Sequence record: PZ445527.1
DNA length: 64,000 nucleotides
DNA from: a phage
Reading direction: 5' to 3' (one strand)
This document shows positions 2,689-61,084 of the stretch, one piece after another. The position numbers were made by a program, and so were the translations under genes. The notes below the pieces were generated by a model. The model saw only the letters and a list, made by a program, of their open reading frames with translations, was not told where the DNA came from and made no database searches. The stretch's first letter is position 1. The number at the start of each line of letters is the position of its first letter.

Positions 2689-2717
2689 ATTATACAGAAT
2701 TTTGAGGTTTAAAGCAA
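2689..2717 (-). promoter_or_regulatory. sigma70-type promoter
   Basis: TTGCTT, 17 nt spacer, TATAAT, leader AAGTTCATAAATTAATGAGAGAGG. Confidence 0.6.
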
Positions 2718-2734
2718 CTGAATTTTTTAATTAC

Positions 2735-3166
2735 TTACCAATCGTTAACAACACCAGAGAACTCAGAAGCAAAAACTTTCTCAAATTTTTCTGCAATTTC
2801 AGGATGATCCTTACAGATCAACTCAATACATGCTTCTGGAGTCATTCCTTCGTCTTCAGGATCACCATAATACTTGTCCCAAAGATCGTCAGGGATGATG
2901 TGCTCTGCCAAATCTTGGAAAGAGATTAGCTGATAACGTTCTGCTTCCTCAGGGATAAGGATTTCACAAAGATCTTTATCTATATCACTACGGTAATCAG
3001 CAATTAGCAGGGCATTGCAAGCATGACACTCCCAAACCATCAAGCGTTCAGAAATAGAATTAGACTTATCCTGAATGTAGGACTGAAACAGGGTTCGAAA
3101 AGTAGCTTTAACTTGTTCAAACTTATCTGCTGCTGCAAAAACTAGAGCTTTATCAACTTTGTTCAT
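2735..3166 (-). CDS. hypothetical protein
   Basis: 143 aa ORF preceded by promoter at 3197..3225. Confidence 0.55.
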   Translation of the reverse strand: MNKVDKALVFAAADKFEQVKATFRTLFQSYIQDKSNSISERLMVWECHACNALLIADYRSDIDKDLCEILIPEEAERYQLISFQDLAEHIIPDDLWDKYYGDPEDEGMTPEACIELICKDHPEIAEKFEKVFASEFSGVVNDW

Positions 3167-3196
3167 TTTGTTTCCTTCTCATCAATTTATAAAGTA

Positions 3197-3225
3197 ATTA
3201 TACAGAAACTTAGGCATTTTAGCAA
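3197..3225 (-). promoter_or_regulatory. sigma70-type promoter
   Basis: TTGCTA, 17 nt spacer, TATAAT. Confidence 0.6.
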
Positions 3226-3333
3226 ATAAAACTTTTAATTAAAATGCCTAATCCTGTACTAATAGCAATACAAATGATTATAAGTATTGCTACTGCTTGT
3301 ATGACTCGTTTAATGATAACCTCAGCTATATAC

Positions 3334-3855
3334 TTAGACATTTAACATCCAGCTAGTTTTATCATGGGAAGTATACTTACCACTCATGATGTCTTCCAGG
3401 CGTACTGGTGATTTTGCATACTCTACACAAACGTTAATATAACGAGGGTCTCCCATTAACTCAAAGTGAGTATGCCCATGTAAGTTCTTTTTACCCCTCA
3501 GCTCCTCTGGATGTACTGGAGCATGGGAAAGCCAAAAGTTTTTATACTTAACTAGGGATTGTACATTATCTACTACTCCTACTAAGTCTTTGAAAGATAA
3601 CCCTTCTCGTTCTAAGTCGTGGTTCCCCAAAACTAATATAGTTCTAACATTGCTAAAGAGTTTTTCGAACTTTTCCAAACCATTTCTAGATACAAATGCA
3701 TCTCCTAAAATATAAAATACTGTACGCTTATCTTTCATGGATGTAATAGTATCCATAATAAATTCATCATGCTCTTCCATAGTAGAGAAGATTGGTCTGA
3801 ATTTAGTAATATTTGCATGTCCTAAATGGAGATCACTCCAAAAGCAAACTTTCAT
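3334..3855 (-). CDS. calcineurin-like metallophosphoesterase
   Basis: 173 aa; metal-ligand motifs DLHLGH, GDAF, GNHD, GHTH typical of metallophosphoesterases. Confidence 0.7.
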   Translation of the reverse strand: MKVCFWSDLHLGHANITKFRPIFSTMEEHDEFIMDTITSMKDKRTVFYILGDAFVSRNGLEKFEKLFSNVRTILVLGNHDLEREGLSFKDLVGVVDNVQSLVKYKNFWLSHAPVHPEELRGKKNLHGHTHFELMGDPRYINVCVEYAKSPVRLEDIMSGKYTSHDKTSWMLNV

Positions 3856-4718
3856 TAAAGGATCCTCTGTACACCACAGCTATTATTTTTGTCAGTGGTA
3901 AATGCTGTGATTTTGCCAGTTTCATCATTAACCTGCGCAACCGTCAACTGCCCGTTGAAAACACCGCCAGTATCAAGATAAACACGGTTTTTATAAAGAA
4001 GTGGGTAAGGTACTCCAGTATGCCCGTGAAACACGAAATCTATCCCTTTAACTTCTGGCACTTCCACCATATATTCTTCTTTAAATCCTGCATAACGCTG
4101 GAAATAGGGGTGTTCCTCAACATTTTTAGACAAGTGGAAGCCTATTTCTTGGATTACATCTCGATCCCATAAATATGGTTCAACATGGTATCCAGGAGGG
4201 TCATGTGGGTCTTCCTTAGCTGCTTCTACTTGTGCAATAAGGTTATCCCATACTGGGGTTTCAACTTCGTTACCACATTCTTTGTACATAAAAGGTACAC
4301 CACCATGAACAACACCATATTTCTTGCCACGATGTTTAACAGTTAGGAATACTGGCATTTTTTCAGCCATGTCTTCGGCAATATTTTTAATGGTATCTGC
4401 ATCTAGTTCATTCATAGCCCACATACCACCGTTATACATCCAGTTAGCCCAATCTCCTACAATCATAAACTGGTCATGATTTCCACGAACGCTACAGAAA
4501 CGTGGATTATACAGGAATTTGGCTAAAACTTGTAGGTTCTGCGTGCCTCGATCAATTAAATCTCCCACGCATACAACGCAATCTTTCTTGCCGTTATAGC
4601 CAGCTAATTGTAGTGCATCTTCTAGCAAATCGTTGCATCCATGAATATCACCAACAAAGAATAAGTTAACATCATCAGGTACTACTAGTGTTTTATGTAC
4701 ATTAAATTCTTTTTTCAT
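3855..4718 (-). CDS. serine/threonine protein phosphatase (PPP family)
   Basis: Motifs GDIHG, GDLIDRG, GNHD as in lambda-type PPP phosphatases; ATG at 4718 sits 2 nt after upstream stop. Confidence 0.8.
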   Translation of the reverse strand: MKKEFNVHKTLVVPDDVNLFFVGDIHGCNDLLEDALQLAGYNGKKDCVVCVGDLIDRGTQNLQVLAKFLYNPRFCSVRGNHDQFMIVGDWANWMYNGGMWAMNELDADTIKNIAEDMAEKMPVFLTVKHRGKKYGVVHGGVPFMYKECGNEVETPVWDNLIAQVEAAKEDPHDPPGYHVEPYLWDRDVIQEIGFHLSKNVEEHPYFQRYAGFKEEYMVEVPEVKGIDFVFHGHTGVPYPLLYKNRVYLDTGGVFNGQLTVAQVNDETGKITAFTTDKNNSCGVQRIL

Positions 4719-4720
4719 AA

Positions 4721-4966
4721 TTATTCCCAAATAACATTTAAAATAGTTGTACCATAGTTATTCGATAGTTTGAGAGTATAACCCTCTTTATTGAGGGCTT
4801 TTATAGCCTCATAACTAATTTCGTCACGATTAAGCTGTACAAAGGAACCTCCAATCTCGACAGAAGATACTATCCTCCGCTTAACCCATCTATACGTTTT
4901 CTTTCGGCTCTTAAGGAGTGCAGCTCTATTAACCCTAGCTAAATGTTTTGCTTGCTCTGCTAACAT
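4721..4966 (-). CDS. hypothetical basic protein
   Basis: 81 aa ORF downstream of promoter 4994..5022. Confidence 0.5.
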   Translation of the reverse strand: MLAEQAKHLARVNRAALLKSRKKTYRWVKRRIVSSVEIGGSFVQLNRDEISYEAIKALNKEGYTLKLSNNYGTTILNVIWE

Positions 4967-4993
4967 TTAATCCTCCTATCAATCTATATAAAT

Positions 4994-5022
4994 ATTATAC
5001 CAAAATTTTTAGCAAAAAGCAA
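4994..5022 (-). promoter_or_regulatory. sigma70-type promoter
   Basis: TTGCTT, 17 nt spacer, TATAAT. Confidence 0.55.
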
Positions 5023-5030
5023 GTAAAATA

Positions 5031-5057
5031 AAAGCCTGATCCGCTAAGATCAGGCTT
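5031..5057 (-). terminator. rho-independent terminator
   Basis: Perfect hairpin AAGCCTGATC-CGCTAA-GATCAGGCTT with T-rich tail on minus strand. Confidence 0.7.
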
Positions 5058-5063
5058 GGTTTA

Positions 5064-5360
5064 TTAATCCTCTGGATTATCATCCAGGAAATTTTTAATA
5101 GCTTCGTGCATAGTTTCCTTACGAAGCTGACGTCCAATCAAAATATGGTTAGCTTCTACTCGACCATTAGGTAAGCGATCTGCCAGAACTACTACAGGTA
5201 CTTGACGTACACCAAATTTCTGCATTAATTCTGTATTATCAGTCTCTTTATGGACTTCCAAGTTATAGTCATTGACTACTTTATCAAATACTGGCTCGAA
5301 AAGAGCACAAGGACGACACGTGGAACCTTTTAATAAATAAATAATTTTGCTCATATACAC
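5064..5360 (-). CDS. thioredoxin/glutaredoxin-like protein
   Basis: 98 aa with CRPC (CxxC) motif near N-terminus; followed by hairpin terminator. Confidence 0.55.
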   Translation of the reverse strand: MYMSKIIYLLKGSTCRPCALFEPVFDKVVNDYNLEVHKETDNTELMQKFGVRQVPVVVLADRLPNGRVEANHILIGRQLRKETMHEAIKNFLDDNPED

Positions 5361-5367
5361 TCCTATT

Positions 5368-5907
5368 TTACTTGTTAAGCTCTTCTAAATCTGGTATATA
5401 TCCAAGAAACTCCTCAATTAAAGCGTACTCCCCAGCAATCTCCTGTCTAGACTTATTCGCTAAGTCTACTGCCAGAGCTAAGTCTTCATAATTGAAGGTT
5501 CCTTTCATACGTTTTCGGCCTGTTTCATCCGTAATTTGAACTCTCCATTTCTGCCTATCTTTAGCCCACATAACATTTGCATATCCAGATTTGGACTTTC
5601 TATGCTTCTTATTACGACAATTTTGTGGTTTAGATGCAGAACGTAAGTTTTTCCATCGGTTATTTTGTGGATTTCTATCTATGTGATCCACAAATTCAGG
5701 TATATATCCTTCCATATATAGGAAGGCCCATCTATGGGCTCCCTGCCTCTCCCCTTCCACCATTATCATTATGTAATCATTGTTATATAGAGTTCCAGCT
5801 TCCATTCCCCTCTTTACATACTGATTATTACCATCTATCTTCCAGGTAAATATCCCGGTTTCTGGATTATATTCTAGTAATTCTTTTAGTCTTTCTTGAG
5901 TGATCAC
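5368..5907 (-). CDS. HNH homing endonuclease (HNH plus AP2-like domain)
   Basis: AHRWAFLYMEGYIPEFVDHIDRNPQNNRWKNLR HNH motif; paralog of ORFs at 29152 and 55085. Confidence 0.8.
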   Translation of the reverse strand: MITQERLKELLEYNPETGIFTWKIDGNNQYVKRGMEAGTLYNNDYIMIMVEGERQGAHRWAFLYMEGYIPEFVDHIDRNPQNNRWKNLRSASKPQNCRNKKHRKSKSGYANVMWAKDRQKWRVQITDETGRKRMKGTFNYEDLALAVDLANKSRQEIAGEYALIEEFLGYIPDLEELNK

Positions 5908-6308
5908 AATTTATTAATGGCCTCTAAGAAGTTTTTCATGCACTTAACAGTTGCGGTGCTGAGGTCTAGAGTAGTTCCTAAACATTCTGTTAATGCTGCC
6001 TGGTAAGGCGCTTTTAAACGCCCTTCAGGGACTTCTACCTTTTTGTAGGTTTTATTCTTTACTTTATCTAGCATAGCTTCAAGAACATTGAGAGGCAACT
6101 TCGCACCCTCAATATTCACACCAAGCATTTCGGTCAGCATGTTATTAAGATCAATACGAGTAAGTTTCTTGCCTTTAGACATAGTAGTTCCTGCCTTCTT
6201 CTCAAGTTTTTTACGCTCTGGTGAATCGAGGTCACGTAATGCGATGTTCAACTCATATGGAGCCATGTTATAATGTTCCGCCATTTGAGTGTAGAAACGA
6301 TCAGACAT
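5904..6308 (-). CDS. hypothetical protein
   Basis: 134 aa ORF downstream of promoter 6341..6369. Confidence 0.55.
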   Translation of the reverse strand: MSDRFYTQMAEHYNMAPYELNIALRDLDSPERKKLEKKAGTTMSKGKKLTRIDLNNMLTEMLGVNIEGAKLPLNVLEAMLDKVKNKTYKKVEVPEGRLKAPYQAALTECLGTTLDLSTATVKCMKNFLEAINKL

Positions 6309-6340
6309 AGTATATACCTCTCTTAACTAATTTATGTATA

Positions 6341-6369
6341 TATTATATAATAACTAGGGCTAAAAGTCA
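6341..6369 (-). promoter_or_regulatory. sigma70-type promoter
   Basis: TTGACT, 17 nt spacer, TATAAT. Confidence 0.6.
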
Positions 6370-6383
6370 ACTACTTTTTTATC

Positions 6384-6800
6384 TTAATCTACTGCATGTA
6401 TAAATCTTTTCCTAACTAGATACATAGTTATTGGGTAAATTGAGTACATAAGTATAGGGGAGAAAAGGGTGAAATACGCTGTAACTCCCCCAGCTAACAT
6501 CAAAGGTATTAATGCTAGAGTAAGGGCCATAAGAATCATACCGAATGAAACAGCCAAAGCTATGGATATAGGATTCTCTAGTTCCATCCATAACCAACAA
6601 TATTTCGTATCTCTGTGGCAATTGCATTTACAAACGCCGAATAAACCCATAATTATATACTCTAGTCCGTGAATAACCTTTATTAATAAGCTATTTCGGG
6701 TAGTTAATGCAATGATAGTAAAGACTATCATTAAAACGAATACTACTAGACTTATTTTCCAAATACCTAGCAGCATCATAGTGAATAGTTCTGCAAACAT
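6384..6800 (-). CDS. integral membrane protein
   Basis: 138 aa with about four hydrophobic helices. Confidence 0.5.
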   Translation of the reverse strand: MFAELFTMMLLGIWKISLVVFVLMIVFTIIALTTRNSLLIKVIHGLEYIIMGLFGVCKCNCHRDTKYCWLWMELENPISIALAVSFGMILMALTLALIPLMLAGGVTAYFTLFSPILMYSIYPITMYLVRKRFIHAVD

Positions 6801-6840
6801 GGCTTTCTCCTATCTTCAAAAGTTATTAAAGCCCCCTTTG

Positions 6841-6866
6841 CCTAAAAAGGCGGGAGTATTCCCGCC
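6841..6866 (-). terminator. rho-independent terminator after endolysin gene
   Basis: Hairpin GGCGGGA-GTAT-TCCCGCC followed by TTTTT on minus strand. Confidence 0.7.
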
Positions 6867-6875
6867 GTATCTTAC

Positions 6876-7289
6876 TTAAATCAATTCTATATGTGGGCCA
6901 TCAAAAGTACCACGTTGGATTTCATCCTTATAACTTCCGTTCTGGTTCCAATCACCACCCCATCTAATCTTTACCCCTAGCTCTTCTGCTGCCTTAAAGA
7001 AGGCATCTGCCACTAATTTGAATGATTCTAAATCATTCCAATCAATCTTCCCATTTTTAAGAGGAGCAAAGTCAACGGCCAGCCCTTGTACGTGTTTTGA
7101 CTTGCTCGGGTCTTTTAAAAACGAGGTTCCATTCTTAATATTTTGGGCGCTTTGTTCTAAGGAACGTAATCCTTCTGTAATTGTAAAATCATATGGGCTT
7201 AATTCTAAAGCTCTATGAGTTACTCTTACTAAATCTGGATGAACACCCTTTAATCTATCTAAACTTCTTTTACTAAATTTAAAACTCAT
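6876..7289 (-). CDS. lys: endolysin, L-alanyl-D-glutamate peptidase (M15-type)
   Basis: 137 aa; matches the size and sequence character I recall for T5 endolysin; followed by hairpin terminator. Confidence 0.85.
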   Translation of the reverse strand: MSFKFSKRSLDRLKGVHPDLVRVTHRALELSPYDFTITEGLRSLEQSAQNIKNGTSFLKDPSKSKHVQGLAVDFAPLKNGKIDWNDLESFKLVADAFFKAAEELGVKIRWGGDWNQNGSYKDEIQRGTFDGPHIELI

Positions 7290-7942
7290 ATTGACCTACC
7301 TAAAGACCTCTGTTGTGGGGAACAGAGCTTTGCTAAATATTCCTTGAACTGTTCAGAATCAGCTGTATCTACCGGATTATCTTTCCAAGCAATACCAATG
7401 TACCCAGCATAGATATTTTTTAGATTGAAGTATGGACAAGTGTATATGTAATTAAAAGTAATGTTTTTAAACGCAGGTATATTTAACCCCATATATTTAT
7501 TTACTCTTACACTTAAATCCGATGCGTAGTTAAAGCCCTCTAAATGACGTCTGTATAATTCAGACGTTTTATTTACCGCTTTATCGGCCAAGTCAGCCCT
7601 ATCTAATTGCGCATTACTTTCCCATGCAATAATATTGGAATAATCATTGATAGCATCTGGTTTATACTTGACTACAAAAACAGCATCTGCACCCGTCTGA
7701 GAGAAGAGAACCATGCTCTTTTCCCTCGCCACATTAGGGAAGTTATCTATCCTCTGGGTTTGTAAATCCTGTAAAACTGCAGACGTGGAAAAAGTCTTTA
7801 AGAATGACATCACTTCACTAGTATTACTAACGAATAAGAAAATAATGACAGCAACTAAGATAGTTAGCAGACGTTTAAGAAGCGATGCTGGGTCTTTCGC
7901 TTCTTGGAGCAGTACTGTTAATAATTGTAAGAACTTTTCCAA
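7286..7942 (-). CDS. holin (putative)
   Basis: Immediately upstream of and overlapping endolysin; single TM segment LLTILVAVIIFLFV; start placed at TTG 8 nt after AGGAGG giving 218 aa. Confidence 0.6.
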   Translation of the reverse strand: MEKFLQLLTVLLQEAKDPASLLKRLLTILVAVIIFLFVSNTSEVMSFLKTFSTSAVLQDLQTQRIDNFPNVAREKSMVLFSQTGADAVFVVKYKPDAINDYSNIIAWESNAQLDRADLADKAVNKTSELYRRHLEGFNYASDLSVRVNKYMGLNIPAFKNITFNYIYTCPYFNLKNIYAGYIGIAWKDNPVDTADSEQFKEYLAKLCSPQQRSLGRSI

Positions 7943-8098
7943 TTTGTAACCTCCTCTAACCAGTACCATTATACTAATTTTGGAGGAAAATTTCAATGGG
8001 TTTTTAAATGTTATACTTGGAGCACAAAATTATGTCGTTGTCAAGAAGAATTTTAGATAAAAGAAAAGCCAGGGTACTTAACCCTGGCTTAAAATTAC

Positions 8099-8698
8099 TT
8101 ACTCTTCGTTGCGCTCCTCGGATTGAGGTAACTGCGCTTTATTATATTGCTCAGATCGATATTTTGCCAAGATTTCAATACGTTTATGGATTTCCTTGCT
8201 ATCTAGATAGATATTTTTGTTGTCTTTTACCATCTCGTCGATTTCATCTATTGAGAAGAACGGATAGTAGACATCTAGCATCATATCTTCTACGAACTTG
8301 TTGTAAGATTCATAGGCTTTCTTGATTTCTTGACCTTTCTCACAGAACCCGCCAGAGAACGTGTGTCCCATTAGCGTAGCATGTGGATGTACTACCCATC
8401 CATGACAAGATAGGAAAATTGTGCAGTAAGCAGAAGCACTAGGACCAATCAGGTGTCCTATAACTGTTCCACGGCAATTAGCAATTAAGTTAGATAACTG
8501 TGCAGCGGTATCAACATAGCCACCAGGGCCATTAATCATCAGATTAATTTCATCGTCCTCATTTGCCTGCATAAGTACCATTGATAAATCACGGTATTCA
8601 TCCGGCGGACCAAGTTCTTCATCAAAGAAAAAGGTATACTCGTTAGATTGGCGAATAGAGTGGAACAGGTTAGTCTTTTCTTCTTTTTTATTAGTCAT
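8099..8698 (-). CDS. ClpP-like serine protease
   Basis: 199 aa with GPSASAY and HPHATLMGH segments resembling ClpP catalytic Ser and His regions. Confidence 0.65.
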   Translation of the reverse strand: MTNKKEEKTNLFHSIRQSNEYTFFFDEELGPPDEYRDLSMVLMQANEDDEINLMINGPGGYVDTAAQLSNLIANCRGTVIGHLIGPSASAYCTIFLSCHGWVVHPHATLMGHTFSGGFCEKGQEIKKAYESYNKFVEDMMLDVYYPFFSIDEIDEMVKDNKNIYLDSKEIHKRIEILAKYRSEQYNKAQLPQSEERNEE

Positions 8699-8710
8699 AG
8701 CGATCCTTGA

Positions 8711-9463
8711 TTATCCAACTAGTGGTTCTAGCTCTAAGTCACAGAAGTTATACACTTCTAGTTTAAGGTTATTGATACCATCGAATTTATTAACTAATTC
8801 ATGAGTAATATATTTTGCAGGAATACCACTTTCAGATGGATGATCTGATTTAATAGTGAACTTCTGCTCAGCGGGCACTACATTTACTAGTAAAGAATCC
8901 ATATCTAAATGGTTTGTTTCTCTGAGTAACTCTCCTTCATTGGGGAATCTCACATCTGTTATTACGGCGACATCTGGGTCGTCTTTAGCGATGGATTGCT
9001 CCAGAATTATGAGCCAAATGCGTTCATGTACTAGCTGCCTTCCTAGCTCTGTTCCTACGAGCTGTAACATTTTTCTCGGAGAAATAAATAAACTATAAAG
9101 TCCATCTTCTTTATTCTCTGAGATAAGTTGTTGAGGATTAAGATATTTTTCCTCAAAAATAGGCCAAACGTACGAGAAGTCCTCAAACTTATCGATACCA
9201 TATTTAAACCATACGTCTCTAGCTCGCTCCAATTGATATTGTGTGACCGTAAACCATTGGTCAATCTCTTTCCCCCTGCGCTCTCCTAGAAACTCTGGAG
9301 TTACCCCGAGGATTACGGATGCAAGCTCATAAACTGGTTTAGCAAAACTGTAACGACGTGGTAAACACGTTGGATACGTGTCATTACACCAATCGATAAT
9401 TAATTTTGCAACGGTATCTTTTCCTGCACCTGCCTCGCCATGTAAACCTACTAATACTGACAT
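8711..9463 (-). CDS. deoxynucleoside monophosphate kinase
   Basis: 250 aa; P-loop GEAGAGKDT at N-terminus; size and sequence as T5 dNMP kinase. Confidence 0.8.
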   Translation of the reverse strand: MSVLVGLHGEAGAGKDTVAKLIIDWCNDTYPTCLPRRYSFAKPVYELASVILGVTPEFLGERRGKEIDQWFTVTQYQLERARDVWFKYGIDKFEDFSYVWPIFEEKYLNPQQLISENKEDGLYSLFISPRKMLQLVGTELGRQLVHERIWLIILEQSIAKDDPDVAVITDVRFPNEGELLRETNHLDMDSLLVNVVPAEQKFTIKSDHPSESGIPAKYITHELVNKFDGINNLKLEVYNFCDLELEPLVG

Positions 9464-9816
9464 TAATCTTTCCTATTGTTAATGGGTGGATAGTAAATTA
9501 AGCAACGTTTTTCTTGTAAATCTTGGCGATAGAAGCAAACCATACTAGTCAATCGTGAGATATATGAATATTCTGCCTCCCGACATTTTGCTAACATATT
9601 CCAATCTTTATATGGTACAACAACTACTACACCATCTTCGCCATTTGTAGCTAATTTCTTTTCGAATTTGAAATCAAAGCTACAAGGCTGAAGTCCTTTA
9701 GGCCAATCTACATGAGCTGTTGGTAGCTCATGTGTAGGTTCTGGCTTTACTTCTTGTGCACAGCCTGTGATTGTGATTGCGGCTGTGAGCAGTATTCCAC
9801 ACTTCCAGTTAAACAT
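9463..9816 (-). CDS. lipoprotein (candidate o-spanin)
   Basis: Signal peptide with lipobox ITGC; start embedded in the 3-prime end of the upstream TM/coiled-coil ORF. Confidence 0.5.
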   Translation of the reverse strand: MFNWKCGILLTAAITITGCAQEVKPEPTHELPTAHVDWPKGLQPCSFDFKFEKKLATNGEDGVVVVVPYKDWNMLAKCREAEYSYISRLTSMVCFYRQDLQEKRCLIYYPPINNRKD

Positions 9817-10190
9817 GCTAATCTTTCCTCGAACTCCTTACTCTGCTTTTTAGCAATTAATGTAACCAATCCAGGCTTTGCAGCTATAATATCTTGACGA
9901 CTAAGTGCTTTATCAAGCTGGGAGATCTTCTTATCAAGATCTTGTTGGGAAATATTATGGAAAGTGAAATATTGATTCATACGTGTTTCACGTTGTTCAC
10001 TTTCAACTTTAATCTTGTTTAAGGAAGTTTCTAGAGTAGAGATCTTTTTAGTAGCTACTGCAAGATCACCTGATAGAGTCTCAACCTTATTAACTAAGTG
10101 ATAAGCACCGAATCCGATGCCTATCGCTAGACCTGCTCCCAGGATATACCATTTACCTTGCCATAGAGAACTAATAAAGTTTTTTATCAT
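9747..10190 (-). CDS. TM plus coiled-coil protein (candidate i-spanin)
   Basis: N-terminal TM helix WYILGAGLAIGIGFGAY followed by coiled-coil-like region; overlaps downstream lipoprotein gene by 70 nt. Confidence 0.5.
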   Translation of the reverse strand: MIKNFISSLWQGKWYILGAGLAIGIGFGAYHLVNKVETLSGDLAVATKKISTLETSLNKIKVESEQRETRMNQYFTFHNISQQDLDKKISQLDKALSRQDIIAAKPGLVTLIAKKQSKEFEERLACLTGSVEYCSQPQSQSQAVHKK

Positions 10191-10867: not shown

Positions 10868-10898
10868 ATTTAATCCTCTTGCCTCAATCTATGAATAT

Positions 10899-10927
10899 AT
10901 TATACAAAAGTTTGGGCATCTATGCAA
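10899..10927 (-). promoter_or_regulatory. sigma70-type promoter
   Basis: TTGCAT, 17 nt spacer, TATAAT. Confidence 0.6.
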
Positions 10928-53533: not shown

Positions 53534-53615
53534 TCTGGTAAATTAAACCTAAGGGGTGGGGGCTATGCCTCTACCCCTTTTTGCATTTAGAAGGCACGAA
53601 AGCGTGCAAAGGAGA

Positions 53616-55088
53616 ATGACCTTGTTTAACGTGCAAGCTGTAGTGTTGAAGATGCTTCTAGCTTCCGAACAGAAGCAAATAGCATTGGAAACATTCTCAA
53701 AACTGCATAAAGATCATTTTAATGACGCTTTCTCCTCAATTTACCAAGCCGTCCAGAATTATTATAAAAAATATAACGCAATGCCGTCCATTGACGCACT
53801 TATGCTTGAGGCCAATAGGAACGCCCGCCTTTCTCAAGCTCTAGTCGTCTTAGCTAACACTCAAATTCCAGAAGTTAGCATGGAACAGGCACTTGAAGTC
53901 CTAGAGGCCGAGTATACACAGGATTTATTCCTGAAGCTTCTAGAAACAGACGTGCTTCAAGATTTAACAATGCTGGATCAGGGAGAAATTCTTAACCGAG
54001 TTGCCTCCCTTCACTTAAAATTAGAAGAGAAAGTAACGAATACTGGAAAAGTATTCAACGCAGATAACATGCGTATTTTCCAGAGAGAAGAAGATACCAA
54101 ACTGAACTTAATCGCTCTTGGTATTTGTAATGAGTTCGACGCTCAAATTGGTTTAGCTCGCACAGAAACGTTACTGCTTGGTGGTTGGCGTGGTACTGGT
54201 AAATCCATTATCTGTTCAAACATACAGGTTCAGCAATATTTGAATGGAGATATTGCTCCATACTTCTCAATTGAGATGAAAGAACATGAAGTATTTAGAC
54301 GTAATCTAGCCATGTTAGCTGGTGTATCAGCACTAGCAATGCGTAATAATACTCTAGAAGGCGCAGCTCTGTTGAGATTAGCCAGAACTAGAGCTAGGAT
54401 GTTTAATGGTGGTGAAGAGCTTTTCGATAACTTCGTTAAACAGTACACAATGGCTAAGATGAGTGATTTCTACGATATGGAAAGTAAGCTAATAGAAGGA
54501 TATGAGCTACATACTCCTATGATTATTGTTTATGATCCTGAGCTGTCTATTACAACAGTTGACGTAGAATTAAATAAATTAGTTGCTAGATATGGGGATA
54601 AAGTTACAGTAGCTTTACTGGACTATATTAACCAAACCCGACTTCCAGACTCTAAAACCATTGATATGTATGACTGGAAAGAACAGATGGTTGTTAGCTC
54701 GTCTTTCAAATCTATCTGCCAGAAACATAACGTGGCTGGTGTAGCCCCTTACCAGATTGATCAAGATGGTAGAACACGTATGTCAAAGGGGATTCTTGAT
54801 TCCGCAGACATGGCTGCTAATCTTAATGCTGCAAAAGCTGATAATGGTCAAGGTGCTATTATGTTTGACTTCGTTAAGACTCGTTCTTCTGATAGCGTGA
54901 AGTTTATGCCTAAAATGAACTGGGAAACCCTACGGATGGATAACACTACCAACCTAGCAATGGAAGATATATCTCAAATGGAAGCTGAGTTCGTTATCCC
55001 TATTGAGAAGGATAAGCCGGCTCAATCTAAACGTGCTAAGAAAGACAAAGCTGAAAATTCAACAGGTGAACAGGCCAGCGATATATGA
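53616..55088 (+). CDS. DnaB-like replicative helicase
   Basis: ORF 53556..55088; start at MTLFNVQ Met 4 nt after AAGGAG; Walker A GWRGTGKS. Confidence 0.8.
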   Translation: MTLFNVQAVVLKMLLASEQKQIALETFSKLHKDHFNDAFSSIYQAVQNYYKKYNAMPSIDALMLEANRNARLSQALVVLANTQIPEVSMEQALEVLEAEYTQDLFLKLLETDVLQDLTMLDQGEILNRVASLHLKLEEKVTNTGKVFNADNMRIFQREEDTKLNLIALGICNEFDAQIGLARTETLLLGGWRGTGKSIICSNIQVQQYLNGDIAPYFSIEMKEHEVFRRNLAMLAGVSALAMRNNTLEGAALLRLARTRARMFNGGEELFDNFVKQYTMAKMSDFYDMESKLIEGYELHTPMIIVYDPELSITTVDVELNKLVARYGDKVTVALLDYINQTRLPDSKTIDMYDWKEQMVVSSSFKSICQKHNVAGVAPYQIDQDGRTRMSKGILDSADMAANLNAAKADNGQGAIMFDFVKTRSSDSVKFMPKMNWETLRMDNTTNLAMEDISQMEAEFVIPIEKDKPAQSKRAKKDKAENSTGEQASDI

Positions 55089-55615
55089 TAACACAGGAAC
55101 GACTAAAAGAACTGTTTGACTACTCCCCAGAGACTGGGGAGTTTACTAGAAAAGTATCTAGAGGCAATCAGAAAGCTGGTAGTATTGCGGGTACTCTAGA
55201 TAGTGGATACATACGGATAAGGGTAGATAGAAAATTATACTTTGCACACCAACTAGCCTTCCTATACATGGAAGGATATATGCCAGAGGAAGTAGACCAT
55301 ATTAATCGAATTACTTGGGATAATAGATGGATTAATATTAGGCCATCCACCCGGCAAGAAAATAGCAGAAATAAAACAGCTAGAAGTAAATCTGGATACT
55401 TGGGAGTTTTCTGGTTTAAGCGGGATCACAAATGGCATGTAAGAGTAGTAAATTCTATGGGAGAAAAAGTTCACGGTGGGCTCTTTAATTACGCAGATCT
55501 AAAGCTTGCAGTCACTAAAGCCAATGAACTACGTCTACAATTACATGGAGAAAATGCTGTTCAAGAGATCTTTGATCCAACTAAGTATCCTTCACTGGAG
55601 GAGTTAAATTCATGA
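55085..55615 (+). CDS. HNH homing endonuclease (HNH plus AP2-like)
   Basis: 176 aa; N-terminus MITQERLKELFDYSPETGEFT, paralog of ORFs at 5368 and 29152. Confidence 0.8.
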   Translation: MITQERLKELFDYSPETGEFTRKVSRGNQKAGSIAGTLDSGYIRIRVDRKLYFAHQLAFLYMEGYMPEEVDHINRITWDNRWINIRPSTRQENSRNKTARSKSGYLGVFWFKRDHKWHVRVVNSMGEKVHGGLFNYADLKLAVTKANELRLQLHGENAVQEIFDPTKYPSLEELNS

Positions 55616-56502
55616 GTAGAATAACAGAATTACTTGATCTTAAGGGAATTGAGTATAAAGATACTGGTGGAGATATTTTAATCTGTTGCTTAAATCCAGA
55701 TCATGACGATAAACACCCAAGTTTGCGTATTGACCCTGAAACAGGTATTATGCACTGCTTGAGTTGTGGCTTCGGTAAAGGTATACCGAGCATTTACCAT
55801 TATTTTAATGAGACTCAGTACCGACAGTCCCCAAGACTATCGCAAGTACGTAAAAAGATTTCAGAGATTAGGAATGGATCAACGAATCTTGCAATTCCTG
55901 AATCTGCTTACCTTTTCGAAGGTGATTTCCGAGGTATAAGTTCTAAGACCTTGAAGAAATATTTTGCTTTCCAACACCAAGCAGACTGGGAAGGCAGAAT
56001 TGTATTCCCAATCACAGATGCTGTTGGACGCAATATCCTATTTTTGGGTCGTTCTATAAACAGTTCTGCCCCTCCTAAATACTTAGTAAAACCAAAACAA
56101 GTTTCACCCCCAATTTTTCCTGTACGATATAATACTCCAGTTCTTATTCTAGTTGAAGGCATCTTTGATATGCTGAACCTAGAGGATAATGGTATAGACT
56201 ATGCTTCTTGCTGCTTTGGTACACATCAGTTTACTTCGGATAACATTGCAGATAAGTTCAGTCCTTATATTATTGCCGGTGTAAAAGTTGTTGTTATCTT
56301 ACTAGATAATGATGCTTCTGGTAATAAAGCCGCACAAGCATTGGCCAAGCTAATTCGTACAAAAACACGTTTAACACCTGTAGTTGCTAACTTCTTACTT
56401 CCAGAGGGTAAGGATCCTGGTGATTTAAATAAAGAAGAAGTCGATACGTTAGCAAAACGTATTGAAATTTTAGTTGCTGAATCGCTTAAAGATTTGGTAT
56501 AA
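55612..56502 (+). CDS. DNA primase (DnaG-like zinc finger plus Toprim)
   Basis: 296 aa; CCLNPDHDDKHPSLRID...HCLSCGFGKG zinc finger; Toprim LVEGIFD...LLDNDASGNKAA. Confidence 0.85.
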   Translation: MSRITELLDLKGIEYKDTGGDILICCLNPDHDDKHPSLRIDPETGIMHCLSCGFGKGIPSIYHYFNETQYRQSPRLSQVRKKISEIRNGSTNLAIPESAYLFEGDFRGISSKTLKKYFAFQHQADWEGRIVFPITDAVGRNILFLGRSINSSAPPKYLVKPKQVSPPIFPVRYNTPVLILVEGIFDMLNLEDNGIDYASCCFGTHQFTSDNIADKFSPYIIAGVKVVVILLDNDASGNKAAQALAKLIRTKTRLTPVVANFLLPEGKDPGDLNKEEVDTLAKRIEILVAESLKDLV

Positions 56503-56564
56503 TATATTGGTAAGTTAGAGAAGAAACATTGAAGTTATACTTACTTACCAAGAGGAGATTAAAT

Positions 56565-59132
56565 TTGAAAATCGCAGTAGTTGATAAAGCTCTAAACAAC
56601 ACTCGTTATGATAAACATTTCCAGCTATACGGCGAGGAAGTTGATGTATTCCATATGTGTAATGAGAAGTTGTCCGGTCGTTTGCTCAAAAAGCATATTA
56701 CTATCGGGACTCCAGAAAACCCATTTGACCCGAATGATTATGATTTTGTTATACTGGTAGGTGCCGAACCTTTTCTGTACTTTGCAGGTAAGAAAGGTAT
56801 TGGTGATTATACCGGTAAACGTGTAGAGTATAATGGATATGCTAACTGGATTGCTAGTATCAGCCCAGCCCAGTTACACTTTAAACCTGAAATGAAACCA
56901 GTTTTTGATGCAACAGTAGAGAATATCCACGATATTATCAATGGTCGTGAGAAGATTGCAAAAGCTGGTGATTACCGTCCTATTACTGGTCCTGACGAGG
57001 CAGAAGAATATATCAAGATGGTATATAATATGGTTATCGGACCTGTCGCATTCGACTCCGAAACCTCAGCACTATACTGTCGAGATGGTTATCTGCTTGG
57101 TGTTTCTATATCTCACCAAGAGTATCAGGGTGTATATATTGATTCTGATTGTCTCACAGAGGTTGCAGTATATTATCTCCAGAAAATTCTGGATAGTGAA
57201 AACCACACTATTGTTTTTCACAACTTGAAGTTTGATATGCACTTTTATAAGTACCACCTGGGACTTACTTTTGATAAAGCACATAAAGAACGCAGGCTCC
57301 ATGATACCATGTTGCAGCACTATGTTCTAGATGAACGTCGTGGTACTCATGGCTTGAAATCTCTAGCAATGAAGTATACCGATATGGGTGACTATGACTT
57401 CGAACTAGATAAGTTCAAAGATGATTACTGCAAAGCACATAAAATCAAGAAAGAAGATTTCACCTATGATTTAATTCCGTTTGATATTATGTGGCCTTAC
57501 GCTGCGAAAGATACAGATGCCACCATACGTTTGCACAACTTCTTCTTACCAAAGATTGAGAAGAATGAAAAACTTTGCAGTCTGTATTACGATGTTTTGA
57601 TGCCTGGTTGCGTATTCTTGCAGCGTGTTGAAGATCGTGGTGTACCTATTTCTATCGATCGTTTAAAAGAAGCTCAGTATCAGTTAACCCATAATCTGAA
57701 TAAAGCCCGTGAGAAACTGTACACTTATCCGGAAGTTAAACAGCTAGAACAAGATCAGAATGAAGCGTTTAACCCGAACTCTGTTAAGCAACTTCGTGTT
57801 CTTCTGTTCGATTATGTTGGTTTGACTCCAACTGGTAAGTTAACAGATACTGGGGCAGATTCTACGGATGCAGAAGCTCTGAATGAACTGGCTACGCAGC
57901 ATCCAATTGCTAAAACTCTACTAGAGATTCGTAAGCTGACTAAGCTGATCTCTACTTATGTTGAGAAGATTCTACTGAGTATTGATGCAGATGGTTGCAT
58001 TCGTACTGGTTTCCATGAACATATGACTACTTCTGGTCGTCTGAGTTCTTCTGGTAAACTGAACCTGCAACAGTTGCCCCGCGATGAATCTATTATCAAG
58101 GGTTGTGTAGTAGCTCCTCCAGGATATCGTGTAATCGCATGGGACTTAACAACTGCGGAAGTTTATTATGCTGCTGTTCTATCTGGGGATAGAAATATGC
58201 AACAGGTATTTATCAACATGAGAAATGAACCTGATAAATACCCAGACTTCCACTCTAACATCGCACACATGGTATTTAAGCTCCAATGCGAACCTCGTGA
58301 TGTTAAAAAGTTATTTCCAGCTCTGCGTCAAGCAGCTAAAGCAATCACCTTTGGTATTCTGTATGGTTCTGGCCCAGCTAAAGTAGCTCATTCTGTTAAC
58401 GAAGCTCTTCTGGAGCAGGCTGCTAAGACAGGCGAACCGTTTGTAGAGTGTACTGTTGCAGATGCTAAAGAGTACATTGAAACTTACTTCGGTCAGTTCC
58501 CGCAGCTTAAGCGTTGGATTGATAAGTGCCACGATCAGATAAAGAATCATGGATTTATCTACAGTCACTTTGGTCGTAAACGTCGTCTGCATAATATCCA
58601 CTCCGAAGACCGTGGTGTTCAGGGTGAAGAAATCCGTTCTGGATTTAACGCAATCATTCAGTCTGCTTCTTCTGATAGTCTCCTTTTAGGTGCTGTAGAT
58701 GCAGATAATGAGATCATTTCTCTTGGCCTAGAACAAGAGATGAAGATTGTTATGCTGGTTCATGACTCCGTAGTTGCTATTGTTCGTGAAGACTTGATCG
58801 ACCAATACAATGAAATCCTGATTCGTAATATTCAGAAAGACCGTGGTATCAGTATTCCTGGCTGTCCGATTGGTATTGATTCAGATTCTGAAGCTGGAGG
58901 TTCTCGTGACTACTCTTGTGGTAAGATGAAGAAACAGCACCCATCAATCGCTTGTATTGATGATGATGAATATACTCGTTATGTCAAGGGTGTATTACTT
59001 GATGCAGAGTTCGAGTATAAGAAACTAGCTGCAATGGATAAAGAGCATCCAGATCATAGCAAGTACAAGGATGATAAGTTTATTGCTGTATGTAAAGATT
59101 TGGATAACGTGAAAAGGATTCTCGGTGCTTAA
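56565..59132 (+). CDS. DNA polymerase, family A with 3-prime-5-prime exonuclease domain
   Basis: ORF 56529..59132; TTG at 56565 follows AGAGGAG and gives 855 aa; Pol A motif B KAITFGILYGSG and motif C LVHDS. Confidence 0.9.
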   Translation: MKIAVVDKALNNTRYDKHFQLYGEEVDVFHMCNEKLSGRLLKKHITIGTPENPFDPNDYDFVILVGAEPFLYFAGKKGIGDYTGKRVEYNGYANWIASISPAQLHFKPEMKPVFDATVENIHDIINGREKIAKAGDYRPITGPDEAEEYIKMVYNMVIGPVAFDSETSALYCRDGYLLGVSISHQEYQGVYIDSDCLTEVAVYYLQKILDSENHTIVFHNLKFDMHFYKYHLGLTFDKAHKERRLHDTMLQHYVLDERRGTHGLKSLAMKYTDMGDYDFELDKFKDDYCKAHKIKKEDFTYDLIPFDIMWPYAAKDTDATIRLHNFFLPKIEKNEKLCSLYYDVLMPGCVFLQRVEDRGVPISIDRLKEAQYQLTHNLNKAREKLYTYPEVKQLEQDQNEAFNPNSVKQLRVLLFDYVGLTPTGKLTDTGADSTDAEALNELATQHPIAKTLLEIRKLTKLISTYVEKILLSIDADGCIRTGFHEHMTTSGRLSSSGKLNLQQLPRDESIIKGCVVAPPGYRVIAWDLTTAEVYYAAVLSGDRNMQQVFINMRNEPDKYPDFHSNIAHMVFKLQCEPRDVKKLFPALRQAAKAITFGILYGSGPAKVAHSVNEALLEQAAKTGEPFVECTVADAKEYIETYFGQFPQLKRWIDKCHDQIKNHGFIYSHFGRKRRLHNIHSEDRGVQGEEIRSGFNAIIQSASSDSLLLGAVDADNEIISLGLEQEMKIVMLVHDSVVAIVREDLIDQYNEILIRNIQKDRGISIPGCPIGIDSDSEAGGSRDYSCGKMKKQHPSIACIDDDEYTRYVKGVLLDAEFEYKKLAAMDKEHPDHSKYKDDKFIAVCKDLDNVKRILGA

Positions 59133-59622
59133 TTTCAAATTGCCCGTCTATGCGTTACGGGCATTTGTATCAATTGAGCAAGAAGGTGATTATTCCGTAA
59201 TTACAACAAGATATAATAAATATGTCCTAGATAACAGGAAGTTGCCTGGCACTTTTTCTCAACGTAGACTTATTCTATTTGAGAAACGGAAAGAATTACC
59301 ATACAAGCTCTATCCTATTAGAGGTAGAATATCAATGTTGTCTCAATTAGTTGGGTCAAAGCGTAACCAATTTATAGATTCTGATGGAAATCTTATTAAT
59401 TGGAAGAAAACTACGTTCTACGATGTTGTCACCTCTAAAGTTTTGCATTCAGCTAGAATTTATAATGGAAAATACCAATGCTATGTGGCTAAAGTCCCTT
59501 ATCCATTTGTATTATCCTATGTTCCAGCTTATATAAGCTATATTCTGGTAAATAATAGCCCTGTTATTTATCAAGTCCATCAAGAGGAGCCTGAAATTCC
59601 TAGACTTAGAATAAAATTATGA
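59125..59622 (+). CDS. hypothetical protein
   Basis: 165 aa ORF between polymerase and helicase. Confidence 0.5.
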   Translation: MLNFKLPVYALRAFVSIEQEGDYSVITTRYNKYVLDNRKLPGTFSQRRLILFEKRKELPYKLYPIRGRISMLSQLVGSKRNQFIDSDGNLINWKKTTFYDVVTSKVLHSARIYNGKYQCYVAKVPYPFVLSYVPAYISYILVNNSPVIYQVHQEEPEIPRLRIKL

Positions 59623-60971
59623 AGGTTGTTATATCTAATAAAGCCTATTTCAAGCCCGATGATGAACTTTGGGATTATTGTAGTAAGCAAACCACTTATC
59701 ACATAGAGACAATGACTAGTAAATACCCTATTATGTATAAGAATAGTGGTGTTGTTGCCAAAGAGATTAAGTGGATTCCTATTACGCGTCTGGACTTATT
59801 AGATGCTAAAGGAATAAAATACGAATTAGTCGATAAACGCACATTAGCTCCGGTAGATATACCAAAACCGTCGTTTAAACTGCGTGAAGAAGATCAGCTT
59901 CCAATATACGAAGAATGCGATGATACCTGTATTATTAATGGTAAGCCTGGGTTTGGTAAAACTATCCTAGCACTTGCACTTGCGTATAAATTTAGTCAGA
60001 AAACTTTGGTAATCTGTACAAATACATCCATTCGTGAAATGTGGGCGGCAGAAGTTCGTAAATGGTTTGGGTTTGAACCAGGCATCATAGGTTCTGGAAA
60101 GTACAATATTGATCCACCCATTGTGGTTAGTAATATTCAAACAGTGAATAAACATGCGAATAATCTTTCTAAAGTATTCGGTACTGTTATAGTTGATGAA
60201 GTTCACCATTGTGTGGCTACAACTTTCACTAACTTCCTAGAAATATCATGTGCTCGCTATAAAATTGGACTATCCGGTACACTAAAACGAAAAGATGGTC
60301 TACAAGTTATGTTCAAAGATTTCTTTGGATATAAGATATTTAGCCCACCGGTTAATAATACTGTTGCACCTACAATCCATAGGTACTCCGTGCCTGTTGA
60401 GCTATCAGGAAACCAAAACGTACCGTGGGCATTACGTGCTAACGATGTGTATAACCATCCTGAATACCGAGAGACTATTATAAACCTAGCACATCTATAT
60501 GTGAATATGGGGCATAAAGTACTCATTGTAAGTGATAGAACAGAGTTAATCCAAACAGTACTAGAAGCACTATCTCAGCGAGGCGTCACAACCTATGAGA
60601 TTATTGGCGCAACCCCCCTTGATGATCGATTAAAAATTCAGGAAGATATAGCAAAAGGTGGCCCTTGTGTACTTGCAGCAGCTCAAAGTATCTTCTCTGA
60701 AGGTATTTCCCTTAATGAGCTATCTTGTTTAATAATGGGAAGCCTCATTAATAATGAATCTCTCATTGAACAGCTTGCAGGCCGTGTTCAACGTATTGTC
60801 GATGGTAAACTCGACCCTATTGTTGTAGATCTAATTATGAAAGGTGGCACTGGACTAAGACAGGCTTCTGGGCGTATGGCAGTATATCGTAACAACGGGT
60901 GGAAAACTATTACTATGACTCCGGAGAAAGCAGTTCAATTAGCTAAAATTGCATTTGGCAACAGCTTATAA
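59619..60971 (+). CDS. SF2 ATP-dependent DNA helicase (T5 D10-like)
   Basis: 450 aa; Walker A GKPGFGKT, DEVH box VIVDEVHH, C-terminal helicase motifs. Confidence 0.8.
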   Translation: MKVVISNKAYFKPDDELWDYCSKQTTYHIETMTSKYPIMYKNSGVVAKEIKWIPITRLDLLDAKGIKYELVDKRTLAPVDIPKPSFKLREEDQLPIYEECDDTCIINGKPGFGKTILALALAYKFSQKTLVICTNTSIREMWAAEVRKWFGFEPGIIGSGKYNIDPPIVVSNIQTVNKHANNLSKVFGTVIVDEVHHCVATTFTNFLEISCARYKIGLSGTLKRKDGLQVMFKDFFGYKIFSPPVNNTVAPTIHRYSVPVELSGNQNVPWALRANDVYNHPEYRETIINLAHLYVNMGHKVLIVSDRTELIQTVLEALSQRGVTTYEIIGATPLDDRLKIQEDIAKGGPCVLAAAQSIFSEGISLNELSCLIMGSLINNESLIEQLAGRVQRIVDGKLDPIVVDLIMKGGTGLRQASGRMAVYRNNGWKTITMTPEKAVQLAKIAFGNSL

Positions 60972-60983
60972 ATGATGTATAAT
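60955..60983 (+). promoter_or_regulatory. sigma70 promoter (first of a tandem pair)
   Basis: TTGGCA, 17 nt spacer, TATAAT, leader ATATACATAAATTTGAGAGAG; followed by hairpin TTCGGA...TCCGAA. Confidence 0.6.
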
Positions 60984-61054
60984 ATATACATAAATTTGAG
61001 AGAGAAAGTTTCGGATTGATAAGAAAGTCCGAAGCAGAAAAATAAAAATTTTAG

Positions 61055-61084
61055 TTGCTAAATTCTCTCGAAATCTAGTATAAT
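61055..61084 (+). promoter_or_regulatory. sigma70 promoter (second of a tandem pair)
   Basis: TTGCTA, 18 nt spacer, TATAAT, leader ATATACATAAATTCGAGGAG. Confidence 0.6.

Follow-up and report, generated by a model that had tools for sequence, protein, structure and literature searches.

A T5-Type Early Promoter Family, Previously Described in T5, and Its Conserved Start Region in a T5-Like Phage

Introduction

The early promoters of phage T5, PN25 among them, were reportedly the subject of work by Gentz and Bujard in 1985 and by Kammerer et al. in 1986, and PN25 has become standard both for expression vectors and for work on how polymerase escapes from a promoter. In work by Hsu and co-workers on N25, the native transcribed sequence gave fast escape and the N25anti variant was about 10-fold worse (PMC12464699). 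The T5 early promoters were studied by Klimuk et al. 2020, with primer extension on T5; an ATATT discriminator was common to all known T5 early promoters and was suggested to be the basis of class-specific regulation, while gpT5.026 had a moderate effect only and its mutant was viable (PMC7472727). Escape and discriminator effects have been measured only on N25 or a small number of T5 promoters, mostly in vitro.

The early promoters of T4 likewise make up a set of dozens of paralogous, unusually strong promoters for the host polymerase within one phage, and their conservation likewise extends to positions around the start site and 5′ of the −35, but they follow another consensus and belong to an unrelated phage. 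This T4 family, whose consensus takes in more than the two hexamers, was reportedly described by Liebig and Rueger in 1989; it is shut off by way of polymerase modification and other T4 proteins, and not by a T5-type mechanism. The sigma-70-dependent promoter-proximal pause elements of lambda PR′ and lacUV5 have a −10-like sequence just past the start, as does the family described below, but their conserved final T is absent from the T5-type element, and the likeness is one of resemblance only.

The DNA analysed here (the window) is a stretch of 64,000 nucleotides from a phage distinct from T5 (PZ445527.1). An earlier note had described in it about 25 near-identical promoters followed by a conserved transcribed leader, and had suggested that the leader could carry a shared regulatory signal.

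Size and Arrangement of the Family

The promoter family proved to be real and far above chance. The pattern TTGCTW-N17-TATAAT matched 18 times in the window, against 0.09 expected from dinucleotide shuffles, and the relaxed pattern TTGCNN-N17/18-TATAAT matched 26 times. When a motif was built and scanned, as the note had proposed, a two-block PWM (−50 to −26 and −17 to +17, spacer 16–18) found 29 family sites in the window at a cut-off of at least 12 bits, and 40 second-order Markov simulations produced zero matches even at 10 bits or more. The first and last members, at 2689 and 61084, are those given earlier; the count is 29 instead of about 25, with the canonical leader in about 20–25 of them. 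The transcribed strand carries all 29, 20 of them on the minus strand at 2689..37859 and nine on the plus strand at 40630..61084, and the promoters switch strand at the same place as the GC skew. The spacer is 17 nt in 24 members and 18 nt in five, the −35 starts with TTG in 28 of the 29 and TATAAT is present in every one. A generic sigma-70 consensus scan of the 40–60 kb region showed no enrichment (47 matches versus 57 in shuffles), and it missed most family members because its scoring used TTGACA; information came from the family-specific motif alone.

The 29 sites, all candidate early promoters, are as follows.

2666..2717, minus strand: −35 to +17; T5P8 ortholog; TTGCTT-17-TATAAT aagttc ATAAATTAATGAGAGAGG; ATG at +27
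3174..3225, minus strand: T5P9 ortholog; ATG at +25
4971..5022, minus strand: T5P10 ortholog; upstream AT block is a terminator T-tract (T5 'repeat a')
6319..6370, minus strand: T5P11 ortholog; −35 TTGACT; found by the leader-only scan
10876..10927, minus strand: T5P13 ortholog; TTGCAT
13001..13052, minus strand: T5P14 ortholog / repeat b1
17169..17220 (−10 end 17192), minus strand: 5′ of tRNA cluster; in T5 'repeat b3' only, no promoter annotation
18812..18863, minus strand: T5P18 ortholog
19270..19321, minus strand: T5P19 ortholog; TTGCTC; tRNA-Tyr 57 nt downstream
19650..19702, minus strand: T5P20 ortholog; spacer 18 nt
20276..20327 (−10 end 20299), minus strand: tRNA-Ser 8 nt downstream; T5 counterpart at about 37195, 100% identical, unannotated
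22604..22655 (−10 end 22627), minus strand: 5′ of tRNA-like gene; T5 'repeat c3', no promoter annotation
23277..23328, minus strand: T5P22 ortholog
24628..24679, minus strand: T5P23 ortholog
25955..26007 (−10 end 25978), minus strand: spacer 18 nt; T5 'repeat c4', no promoter annotation
27812..27863, minus strand: T5P25 ortholog; 7-nt discriminator, leader motif one base off
28607..28658, minus strand: T5P26 ortholog; divergent leader ATTGAAAGTGAGGAGG
30081..30133, minus strand: weakest member, 22.7 bits; T5P27 ortholog; CTGCTT, spacer 18 nt, non-family leader
32698..32749, minus strand: T5P28 ortholog; divergent leader
37808..37859, minus strand: final leftward early promoter; T5P30 ortholog
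40630..40681, plus strand: first rightward family promoter; T5P31 ortholog; terminator 40595-40619 upstream
43773..43824, plus strand: T5P32 ortholog; TTGCAT; long leader
47981..48032, plus strand: apparent ortholog of T5 PN25 (= T5P33); −35 TTGCAT; leader same as N25
48995..49046, plus strand: T5P34 ortholog
50180..50231, plus strand: T5P35 ortholog, 100% identical; ligase subunit A
51947..51998, plus strand: T5P37 ortholog; ligase subunit B; kept in Klebsiella, Erwinia and Vibrio relatives
56474..56526 (−10 end 56503), plus strand: DNA polymerase promoter; spacer 18 nt; leader GTAAGTT...; T5 counterpart at about 71119, unannotated
60955..61006 (−10 end 60983), plus strand: TTGGCA −35; T5 'repeat c7', no promoter annotation; tandem with 61055..61107
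61055..61107, plus strand: T5P38 ortholog, 100% identical; spacer 18 nt

Counterparts in T5 and in Distant Relatives

The comparison with published T5 promoters, which the note had also proposed, provided a syntenic counterpart for every one of the 29 sites. Identity between the window and the T5 early region is about 94%, with a mosaic pattern, and the sites themselves are 90–100% identical to their T5 counterparts, mostly above the syntenic genome blocks (78–97%). In GenBank AY587007, 23 of them are 'putative early promoter' features (T5P8...T5P38) and six have no promoter annotation; the same record annotates the −10 plus leader as "repeat b/c". For two annotated T5 promoters, T5P16 and T5P17, the window has no counterpart. 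Common to both phages are TTGCTW, the 17-bp spacer, TATAAT, the AT-rich discriminator and the ATAAATTGA/GAGAGG start, and the positions relative to the genes are the same. With this degree of identity and annotation behind it, the reading of the sites as early-class promoters of a T5-like phage (Tequintavirus), made for the host sigma-70 RNA polymerase, is very probably correct. The family had been rightly interpreted, but it is not new, because these are the classic T5 early promoters, annotated in GenBank.

The copy at 47981..48009, which had been said to match PN25, is on sequence grounds its ortholog and not the same sequence. T5P33 agrees in every letter with the PN25 sequence given in the primers of PMC4447248, and the window copy is identical to it from −17 to about +30, leader included. 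The spacer and the upstream region differ, a homing-endonuclease gene stands in place of the far-upstream UP region, and the −35 is TTGCAT for TTGCTT, so that this copy falls outside the TTGCT(T/A) pattern by which the family had been defined.

The window holds early genes only, and the full T5 genome served as a proxy in which the window-derived PWM could be run. There were 34 matches, of which 31 lie within the 16.2–75.7 kb early region; of the others, one is the early llp promoter T5P41 and two are a single weak site in the terminal repeats. Over that whole genome the PWM matched none of the annotated pre-early and late promoters, and within T5 the motif belongs to the early class alone. 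Window and T5 differ by only 0–3 changes per column, too few to rank positions, and distant relatives were used instead. The motif recurs in Demerecviridae of Klebsiella, Erwinia and Vibrio; there, DNA polymerase identity is just 58–77% and the spacers have drifted apart, but the blocks are retained.

The Conserved Start Region

The leader is conserved independently of the −35 and −10 hexamers. In 26 seeds picked by their hexamers alone, with the leader ignored, information content persisted over −6 to +17, and the median leader score was 16.4 bits (leave-one-out). A stands at −6 in 25 of the 26 seeds and T at −3 in 22, and each position of TAAATT at +2 to +7 is kept in 21–24. The string TATAAT-N6-ATAAATT, with at most one mismatch, occurs 20 times where 0.91 would be expected. 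A leader-only PWM was noisy at 8 bits or more (47 matches versus about 19 expected); above about 15 bits, nearly all of its matches lie directly 3′ of TATAAT. Information is low in the spacers and far-upstream regions and the functional blocks are near-invariant, so that "near-identical" holds for the blocks and not for the spacers, which vary among members.

Downstream of the −10 the order is ATATTY, then ATAAATTGA, then a purine run nearly without C. The "transcribed leader" is indeed conserved, but its first six bases are an untranscribed discriminator (consensus ATATTT over −6 to −1, G+C 15.5%), in which ATATT applies as a consensus and not copy by copy, since only 8 of the 29 sites have it exactly. 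C makes up 2.6% of +2 to +17, versus 17.4% on the transcribed strand. The leaders at sites 28630, 30104 and 32721 are divergent, and these three members stand outside the family type. Two subtypes can be told apart, b-type members with ATTTAT/ATAAATTGATGAG and c-type members with ATATTC/ATAAATTTGAGAGAG. An extended −10 was considered for the c-type copies and rejected: the TG before TATAAT sits at −14/−13 instead of −15/−14, and there is therefore no canonical extended −10.

A Probable Composite Early Promoter

Read as T5 early-class promoters, the sites have the build of a strong composite promoter. It consists of an A-rich, UP-like block at about −46 to −38, a −35 of TTGCTW, a spacer of 17 (sometimes 18) bp carrying an A-run at −22 to −19 and a T-run at −17 to −15, a perfect TATAAT and a 6-bp AT-rich discriminator, ATATTY. 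The start would be the A seven bases past the −10, and the RNA would open with AUAAAUUGA and continue into the C-poor purine run. Start sites in the window phage are inferred here from N25, whose run-off 'C30' is consistent with transcription from the A of ATAAATTT.

With such a layout, the "conserved leader" would therefore consist of three parts. The untranscribed discriminator would be the T5 early-class signature and the proposed target at which gpT5.026 may weaken RNA polymerase contact during early turn-down. The initial transcribed sequence, inside the polymerase footprint, would have the role that it has in N25, that of setting the speed at which a tightly bound polymerase escapes, if, as the analogy suggests, all family members behave like N25. 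The third part would be, in roughly two units out of three, a Shine-Dalgarno, with the first gene 22–35 nt from the 5′ end. A shared signal in the leader, as first suggested, fits the published ATATT-class and N25-escape proposals, but part of the block is untranscribed, and its role may be one in strength, escape or translation rather than in regulation.

A TG step is found at +7/+8 or +8/+9 in 21 of the 29 sites. Such a YG/TG step is reported to slow rather than speed escape, and a YG near +6 to cause initiation pausing (PMC5961368), and it is therefore not evident that the conserved TTGA serves to optimise escape.

Alternative Explanations

The leader could serve translation purely, as an unstructured, A/U-rich 5′ end joined to a strong Shine-Dalgarno and suited to ribosome loading on very short leaders. 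In 19 of the 29 units the purine run does form a Shine-Dalgarno for a gene that begins at +22 to +35, which bears out for those units the earlier description of a leader running into the ribosome-binding site, and the leaders are little structured and have no shared secondary structure. Against this, ten promoters, those of tRNA or long-leader units, lack an ORF in the first 50 nt or so; they include promoters 8 and 57 nt upstream of tRNA genes, and leaders in this group are equally conserved: matches to ATAAATT average 5.9 of 7 in these units versus 6.0 in the others, and the purine fraction of the run is 0.84 versus 0.87 (background 0.53, P = 5e-10). Conservation moreover starts in the discriminator, upstream of the RNA start. 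The leader motif is more than a ribosome-binding site, and translation as its sole purpose is improbable; a translational role probably contributes but is insufficient for the conservation seen.

The stretch from −6 to about +10 could also be an operator at which a phage DNA-binding protein switches the early units off or on together. No phage protein of this kind is known. The motif is early-class only in T5, its position over the start site is one at which a repressor would work, the block is kept across the family, and the mechanism of class switching is open according to Klimuk et al. 2020 (PMC7472727). On the other side, the sites are without dyad symmetry: only 3 of the 29 have ATTTATAAAT as a perfect palindrome, a C at −1 has no compensation at +3, and the palindrome idea was dropped. 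RNA polymerase contacts the same bases, and their conservation is sufficiently explained because it does so; we give the operator little chance of being right.

Another proposal is a shared pause, either sigma-dependent, at the TATAAA-like sequence at −1 to +5, or in initial transcription, at the T-G step at +7 to +9. The consensus over −1 to +5 agrees with TATAAT at five of six positions, and the frequent YG step described above lies close to where pausing was reported (PMC5961368). The final T needed by sigma is missing, however, with A at +5 (the equivalent of T−7) in 21 of 26 seeds, where the −10-like hexamer of a sigma-70 pause element in the initial transcribed region would have A at position 2 and T at position 6. 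Native N25 is a comparatively fast escaper (PMC12464699), no report of such a pause at N25 was found, and the proposal seems quite unlikely.

That the similarity is a relic of recent promoter-cassette duplication or gene conversion, with a functionless leader, would suit the treatment of −10 and leader as dispersed 'repeats b and c' in the T5 annotation, but is hardly credible when paralogous copies share near-invariant functional blocks and not spacers, and when the Klebsiella, Erwinia and Vibrio phage orthologs keep those blocks despite diverged spacers. A shared structured RNA, for example a riboswitch or a protein-binding hairpin, is equally hard to believe: the single leaders at 22627 and 60983 have 5′ hairpins, but a common fold was ruled out by four typical leaders that folded no better than shuffles or unlike one another and by an Rfam scan of the window that gave tRNAs only at the gathering threshold, and self-pairing of the leader is impossible because it is A/U- and purine-rich and nearly free of C. 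The polymerase leaders were folded as single sequences, the aligned fold being empty as MAFFT misaligned the 3′ arms.

Concluding Remarks

As a discovery the family carries little weight. Its modest yield is a transcribed block that is conserved with or without a gene downstream, strikingly C-free, and retained in distant relatives on different hosts. Its relevance is to how T5 switches its transcription classes, a question still open in the literature. Beyond optimising strength and escape and providing a ribosome-binding site, the block formed by the discriminator, AUAAAUUGA and the C-free purine run may act as a control element dedicated to the whole class, a tentative and rather doubtful reading. 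It is permitted by the presence of the block in about 30 paralogs, also 5′ of tRNA genes, and by its retention in Demerecviridae of Escherichia, Klebsiella, Erwinia and Vibrio. Such an element could work by pausing initial transcription in a programmed way at the conserved T-G step; alternatively, it could offer gpT5.026 with a partner, or another DNA- or RNA-binding protein, a handle by which the early units are shut off together.

The T5 early promoter family

The repeated promoters of the window are those of the known early promoter family of Escherichia phage T5, here found in a T5 relative; the feature is real and already known. Aligned over its entire length, the window corresponds to T5 13530-78616 apart from mosaic gaps, and its 40000-52000 portion is ~94.5% identical to the T5 early region. 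Across the matching region, the T5 record (GenBank AY587007) carries features labelled "putative early promoter T5P6...T5P38", as well as dispersed repeats that are exactly the -10 hexamer plus the leader, namely "repeat b" (TATAATATTTATATAAATTGATGAG) and "repeat c" (TGTATAATATATTCATAAATTTGAGAGAG). Each of the 29 family sites can be paired with a T5 site at 90-100% identity, which mostly exceeds that of the surrounding genome, and 23 coincide with annotated T5 promoters. Four of the other six (-10 ends at 17192, 20299, 22627, 25978, 56503 and 60983) bear a repeat b or c label in T5. T5P16 and T5P17, which are family-type in T5, have no window counterpart. An earlier note had read these sites as a promoter family and proposed a comparison with T5, and this orthology bears it out.

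A search of the window for TTGCTW-N17-TATAAT gave 18 matches (14 minus-strand copies over 2689..37859, four plus-strand copies over 40630..51975), as compared with 0.09 expected from dinucleotide-preserving shuffles, which places the motif above the chance frequency in AT-rich DNA that the same note had named as a possible refutation. Relaxing the pattern to TTGCNN with a spacer of 17 or 18 nt gave 26 sites, from which a two-block weight matrix was built (-50..-26 and -17..+17, the spacer being allowed to vary from 16 to 18). At 12 bits or more this matrix found 29 window sites, whereas 40 simulated windows contained no site even with the threshold lowered to 10 bits, and its outermost members, 2689 and 61084, are the ends that had been proposed from the sequence. 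The 20 sites left of 37.9 kb are all minus-strand and the nine right of 40.6 kb all plus-strand, so the orientation of all of them follows the local direction of transcription; the GC skew switches sign near 38 kb. A generic sigma-70 scan showed no enrichment (47 matches versus 57 in shuffles), and the signal is a family-specific motif rather than AT-richness.

Conservation of the leader

Since the 26 seeds were picked on their hexamers alone, the sequence beyond the -10 provides an independent test. Information content is clear at -6..+17, with A at -6 in 25 seeds, T at -3 in 22, TAAATT at +2..+7 in 21-24 and a purine run at +9..+17, and the median leave-one-out leader score was 16.4 bits. 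The consensus after the -10, ATATTY followed by ATAAATTGA(T)GAGAGG, is nearly that of the earlier note, which had taken all of it as transcribed; the first six bases are the untranscribed discriminator. TATAAT-N6-ATAAATT with at most one mismatch is present 20 times, as compared with 0.91 expected. In a leader-only scan, the top-scoring matches were nearly all directly 3' of TATAAT, so the leader belongs to the promoter and is no free-standing element; two extra promoters with a different -35 were also recovered (TTGACT at 6342 and TTGGCA at 60955).

Judging by the N25 run-off product "C30", transcription starts at the A of ATAAATTT, 7 bases past the -10 (PMC12464699). In this register, a start codon falls at +22..+35 in 19 of the 29 units, with the purine run as their Shine-Dalgarno sequence. 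The remaining ten are ORF-free within about 50 nt, some having a tRNA gene 8 or 57 nt downstream, and keep the motif equally well, with 5.9 of 7 ATAAATT matches versus 6.0 in the others and a purine run of 0.84 versus 0.87 (background 0.53, P = 5e-10). This, together with the depletion of C at +2..+17 across all 29 sites (2.6%, the transcribed strand having 17.4%; P about 3e-28), argues that the leader block is more than a ribosome-binding site. A shared RNA fold was rejected, none being common among the leaders folded, as was a palindromic operator (3/29 palindromic, without compensation), and the leader matches no Rfam family. At one unit these elements were seen:

22479-22620 (-): region with the leader of promoter 22627, which folds into a 13-bp hairpin from +1 that includes the conserved AUAAAUU (z -3.5)
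22479-22550: tRNA-like gene about 70 nt downstream (Rfam 35.5 bits, missed by ARAGORN); annotated pseudo-tRNA at the equivalent place in T5

The PN25 ortholog

The PN25 sequence printed in primers (PMC4447248) agrees with T5P33 in every letter. The copy at 47981..48009, which the earlier note had matched to PN25, proved a correct lead, being the ortholog and identical from -17 to about +30; it differs in having TTGCAT for TTGCTT and in its upstream sequence. The region of the T5 N25 UP element is here occupied by the following ORF; T5 has at this locus a different endonuclease gene that is absent from the window.

47402-47974 (+): 190-aa HNH homing-endonuclease ORF (Pfam HNH_3, E = 5.5e-8; weak NUMOD4), stopping 6 nt before the -35

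Class specificity and relatives

When the full T5 genome was scanned with the window-derived matrix, 31 of 34 matches fell in the early region (16.2-75.7 kb), one was T5P41, the early llp promoter, and two were a single weak site present in both terminal repeats. This site (AY587007 6004 and 117617, plus strand, pre-early region, without promoter annotation) reads TATAAT aactgc ATAAATTAGTTAG and has a poor -35, TAGCCA. The motif was absent from the annotated T5 pre-early promoters P1-P5 and late promoters P39, P40 and P42. Three relatives also show the family architecture, with divergent spacers, in their early regions, JSF10 giving for example TATAAT agttcc ATAAATTGATGAAC, and the exact -10 plus leader pattern is found in more than 120 IMG/VR stretches, largely on contigs of 104-128 kb, a length that would suit T5-like genomes. 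Recurrence of the architecture while spacers diverge is incompatible with a mere relic of duplication and speaks for the blocks being under selection.

Table. Family matches in relatives (phage; polymerase identity; matches)
Klebsiella phage DevonBitter; 77.5%; 11 in 34 kb
Erwinia phage KEY; 74.8%; 11 in 43 kb
Vibrio phage JSF10; 58%; 7 weaker in 44 kb

Other promoters and neighbouring elements

Counterparts of T5 P6, P7, P15 and P24 are also present and of non-family type, as are three of those listed here; the sequence features of the T5P12 ortholog would fit a different temporal class.

7911-8010 (-): T5P12 ortholog ahead of holin/endolysin genes, 100% identical to T5; TTGAAA-N17-TATAAT, G+C-richer discriminator GGTACT, without the family leader
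36643-36742: T5P29 counterpart
51837-51933: T5P36 counterpart
51854-51882 (+) and 51947-51975 (+): tandem promoters between two ligase subunit genes; the T5P36 ortholog (near-consensus TTGACA-N17-TATACT, discriminator and leader unlike the family) and, 93 bp downstream, the family-type T5P37 ortholog
60955-61107 (+): two family promoters, same strand, 100 bp apart, the next ORF with a Shine-Dalgarno being some 380-480 nt away from both; in T5 the second alone bears a promoter annotation, and the first leader could form a small hairpin (z -2.1)
37905-37933 (+): TTGCTT-N17-TATGAT box, back to back with family promoter 37831 (-)
37948-38755 (+): segment without T5 counterpart, in the divergent region that separates the leftward from the rightward early genes, and probably a mobile gene served by a predicted promoter of its own; ORF start at 38084, promoter-like box at 38032-38060 (TTGACG-N17-TATAAT, non-family discriminator ATGTGA)
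4994-5060 (-) and 40595-40658 (+): intrinsic terminator hairpin immediately upstream of a promoter, its T-run GGCTTTTATTTTAY doubling as the promoter's upstream AT-rich block; this shared module is "repeat a" in the T5 annotation
43705/43773, 50135/50180 and 56441/56474: further terminator-then-promoter pairs
56509-56570 (+): DNA polymerase leader, opening with a 5' stem GGUAAGU...ACUUACC

T5 and the Klebsiella and Erwinia relatives retain the polymerase-leader stem. Vibrio phages JSF10 and River4 have at the same place a different sequence with a much stronger hairpin and then a U-run (z about -5), pairing being kept despite the differing sequence. The corresponding positions outside the window are L126 about 19945, L124 about 19941, L125 about 19911 and L127 about 330. 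Possible roles for the hairpin are stabilisation of the mRNA from its 5' end, translational control as an operator, and attenuation.

Mechanism

According to Klimuk et al. 2020 (PMC7472727), the discriminator is the main difference between early and late promoters of T5, and it is ATATT in all known early ones; the phage protein gpT5.026, through binding to the beta subunit of the polymerase, weakens the discriminator contact, and without it early transcripts go up and late transcripts go down. The shared regulatory signal that the earlier note had suggested for the leader agrees with this published proposal, and whether the leader offers a class-wide regulatory handle is a question that the literature already poses. 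N25 itself has, besides TTGctt/17/TATAAT, a UP element upstream and an AT-rich element in the spacer, and escape is its rate-limiting step (Hsu and Han 2025, PMC12464699). Its native transcribed sequence was concluded to have evolved for faster escape, an "anti" version being about 10-fold worse (PMC12464699). A T-G step near the start is reported to slow initial transcription in other promoters (PMC5961368), yet one is present at +7..+9 in 21 of the 29 sites, and the classic "TTGA" need not favour escape. On the favoured account, each family site is probably a tightly binding early promoter in which the discriminator would mark the promoter class, the transcribed start would tune escape and the purine run usually also serves as the ribosome-binding site.
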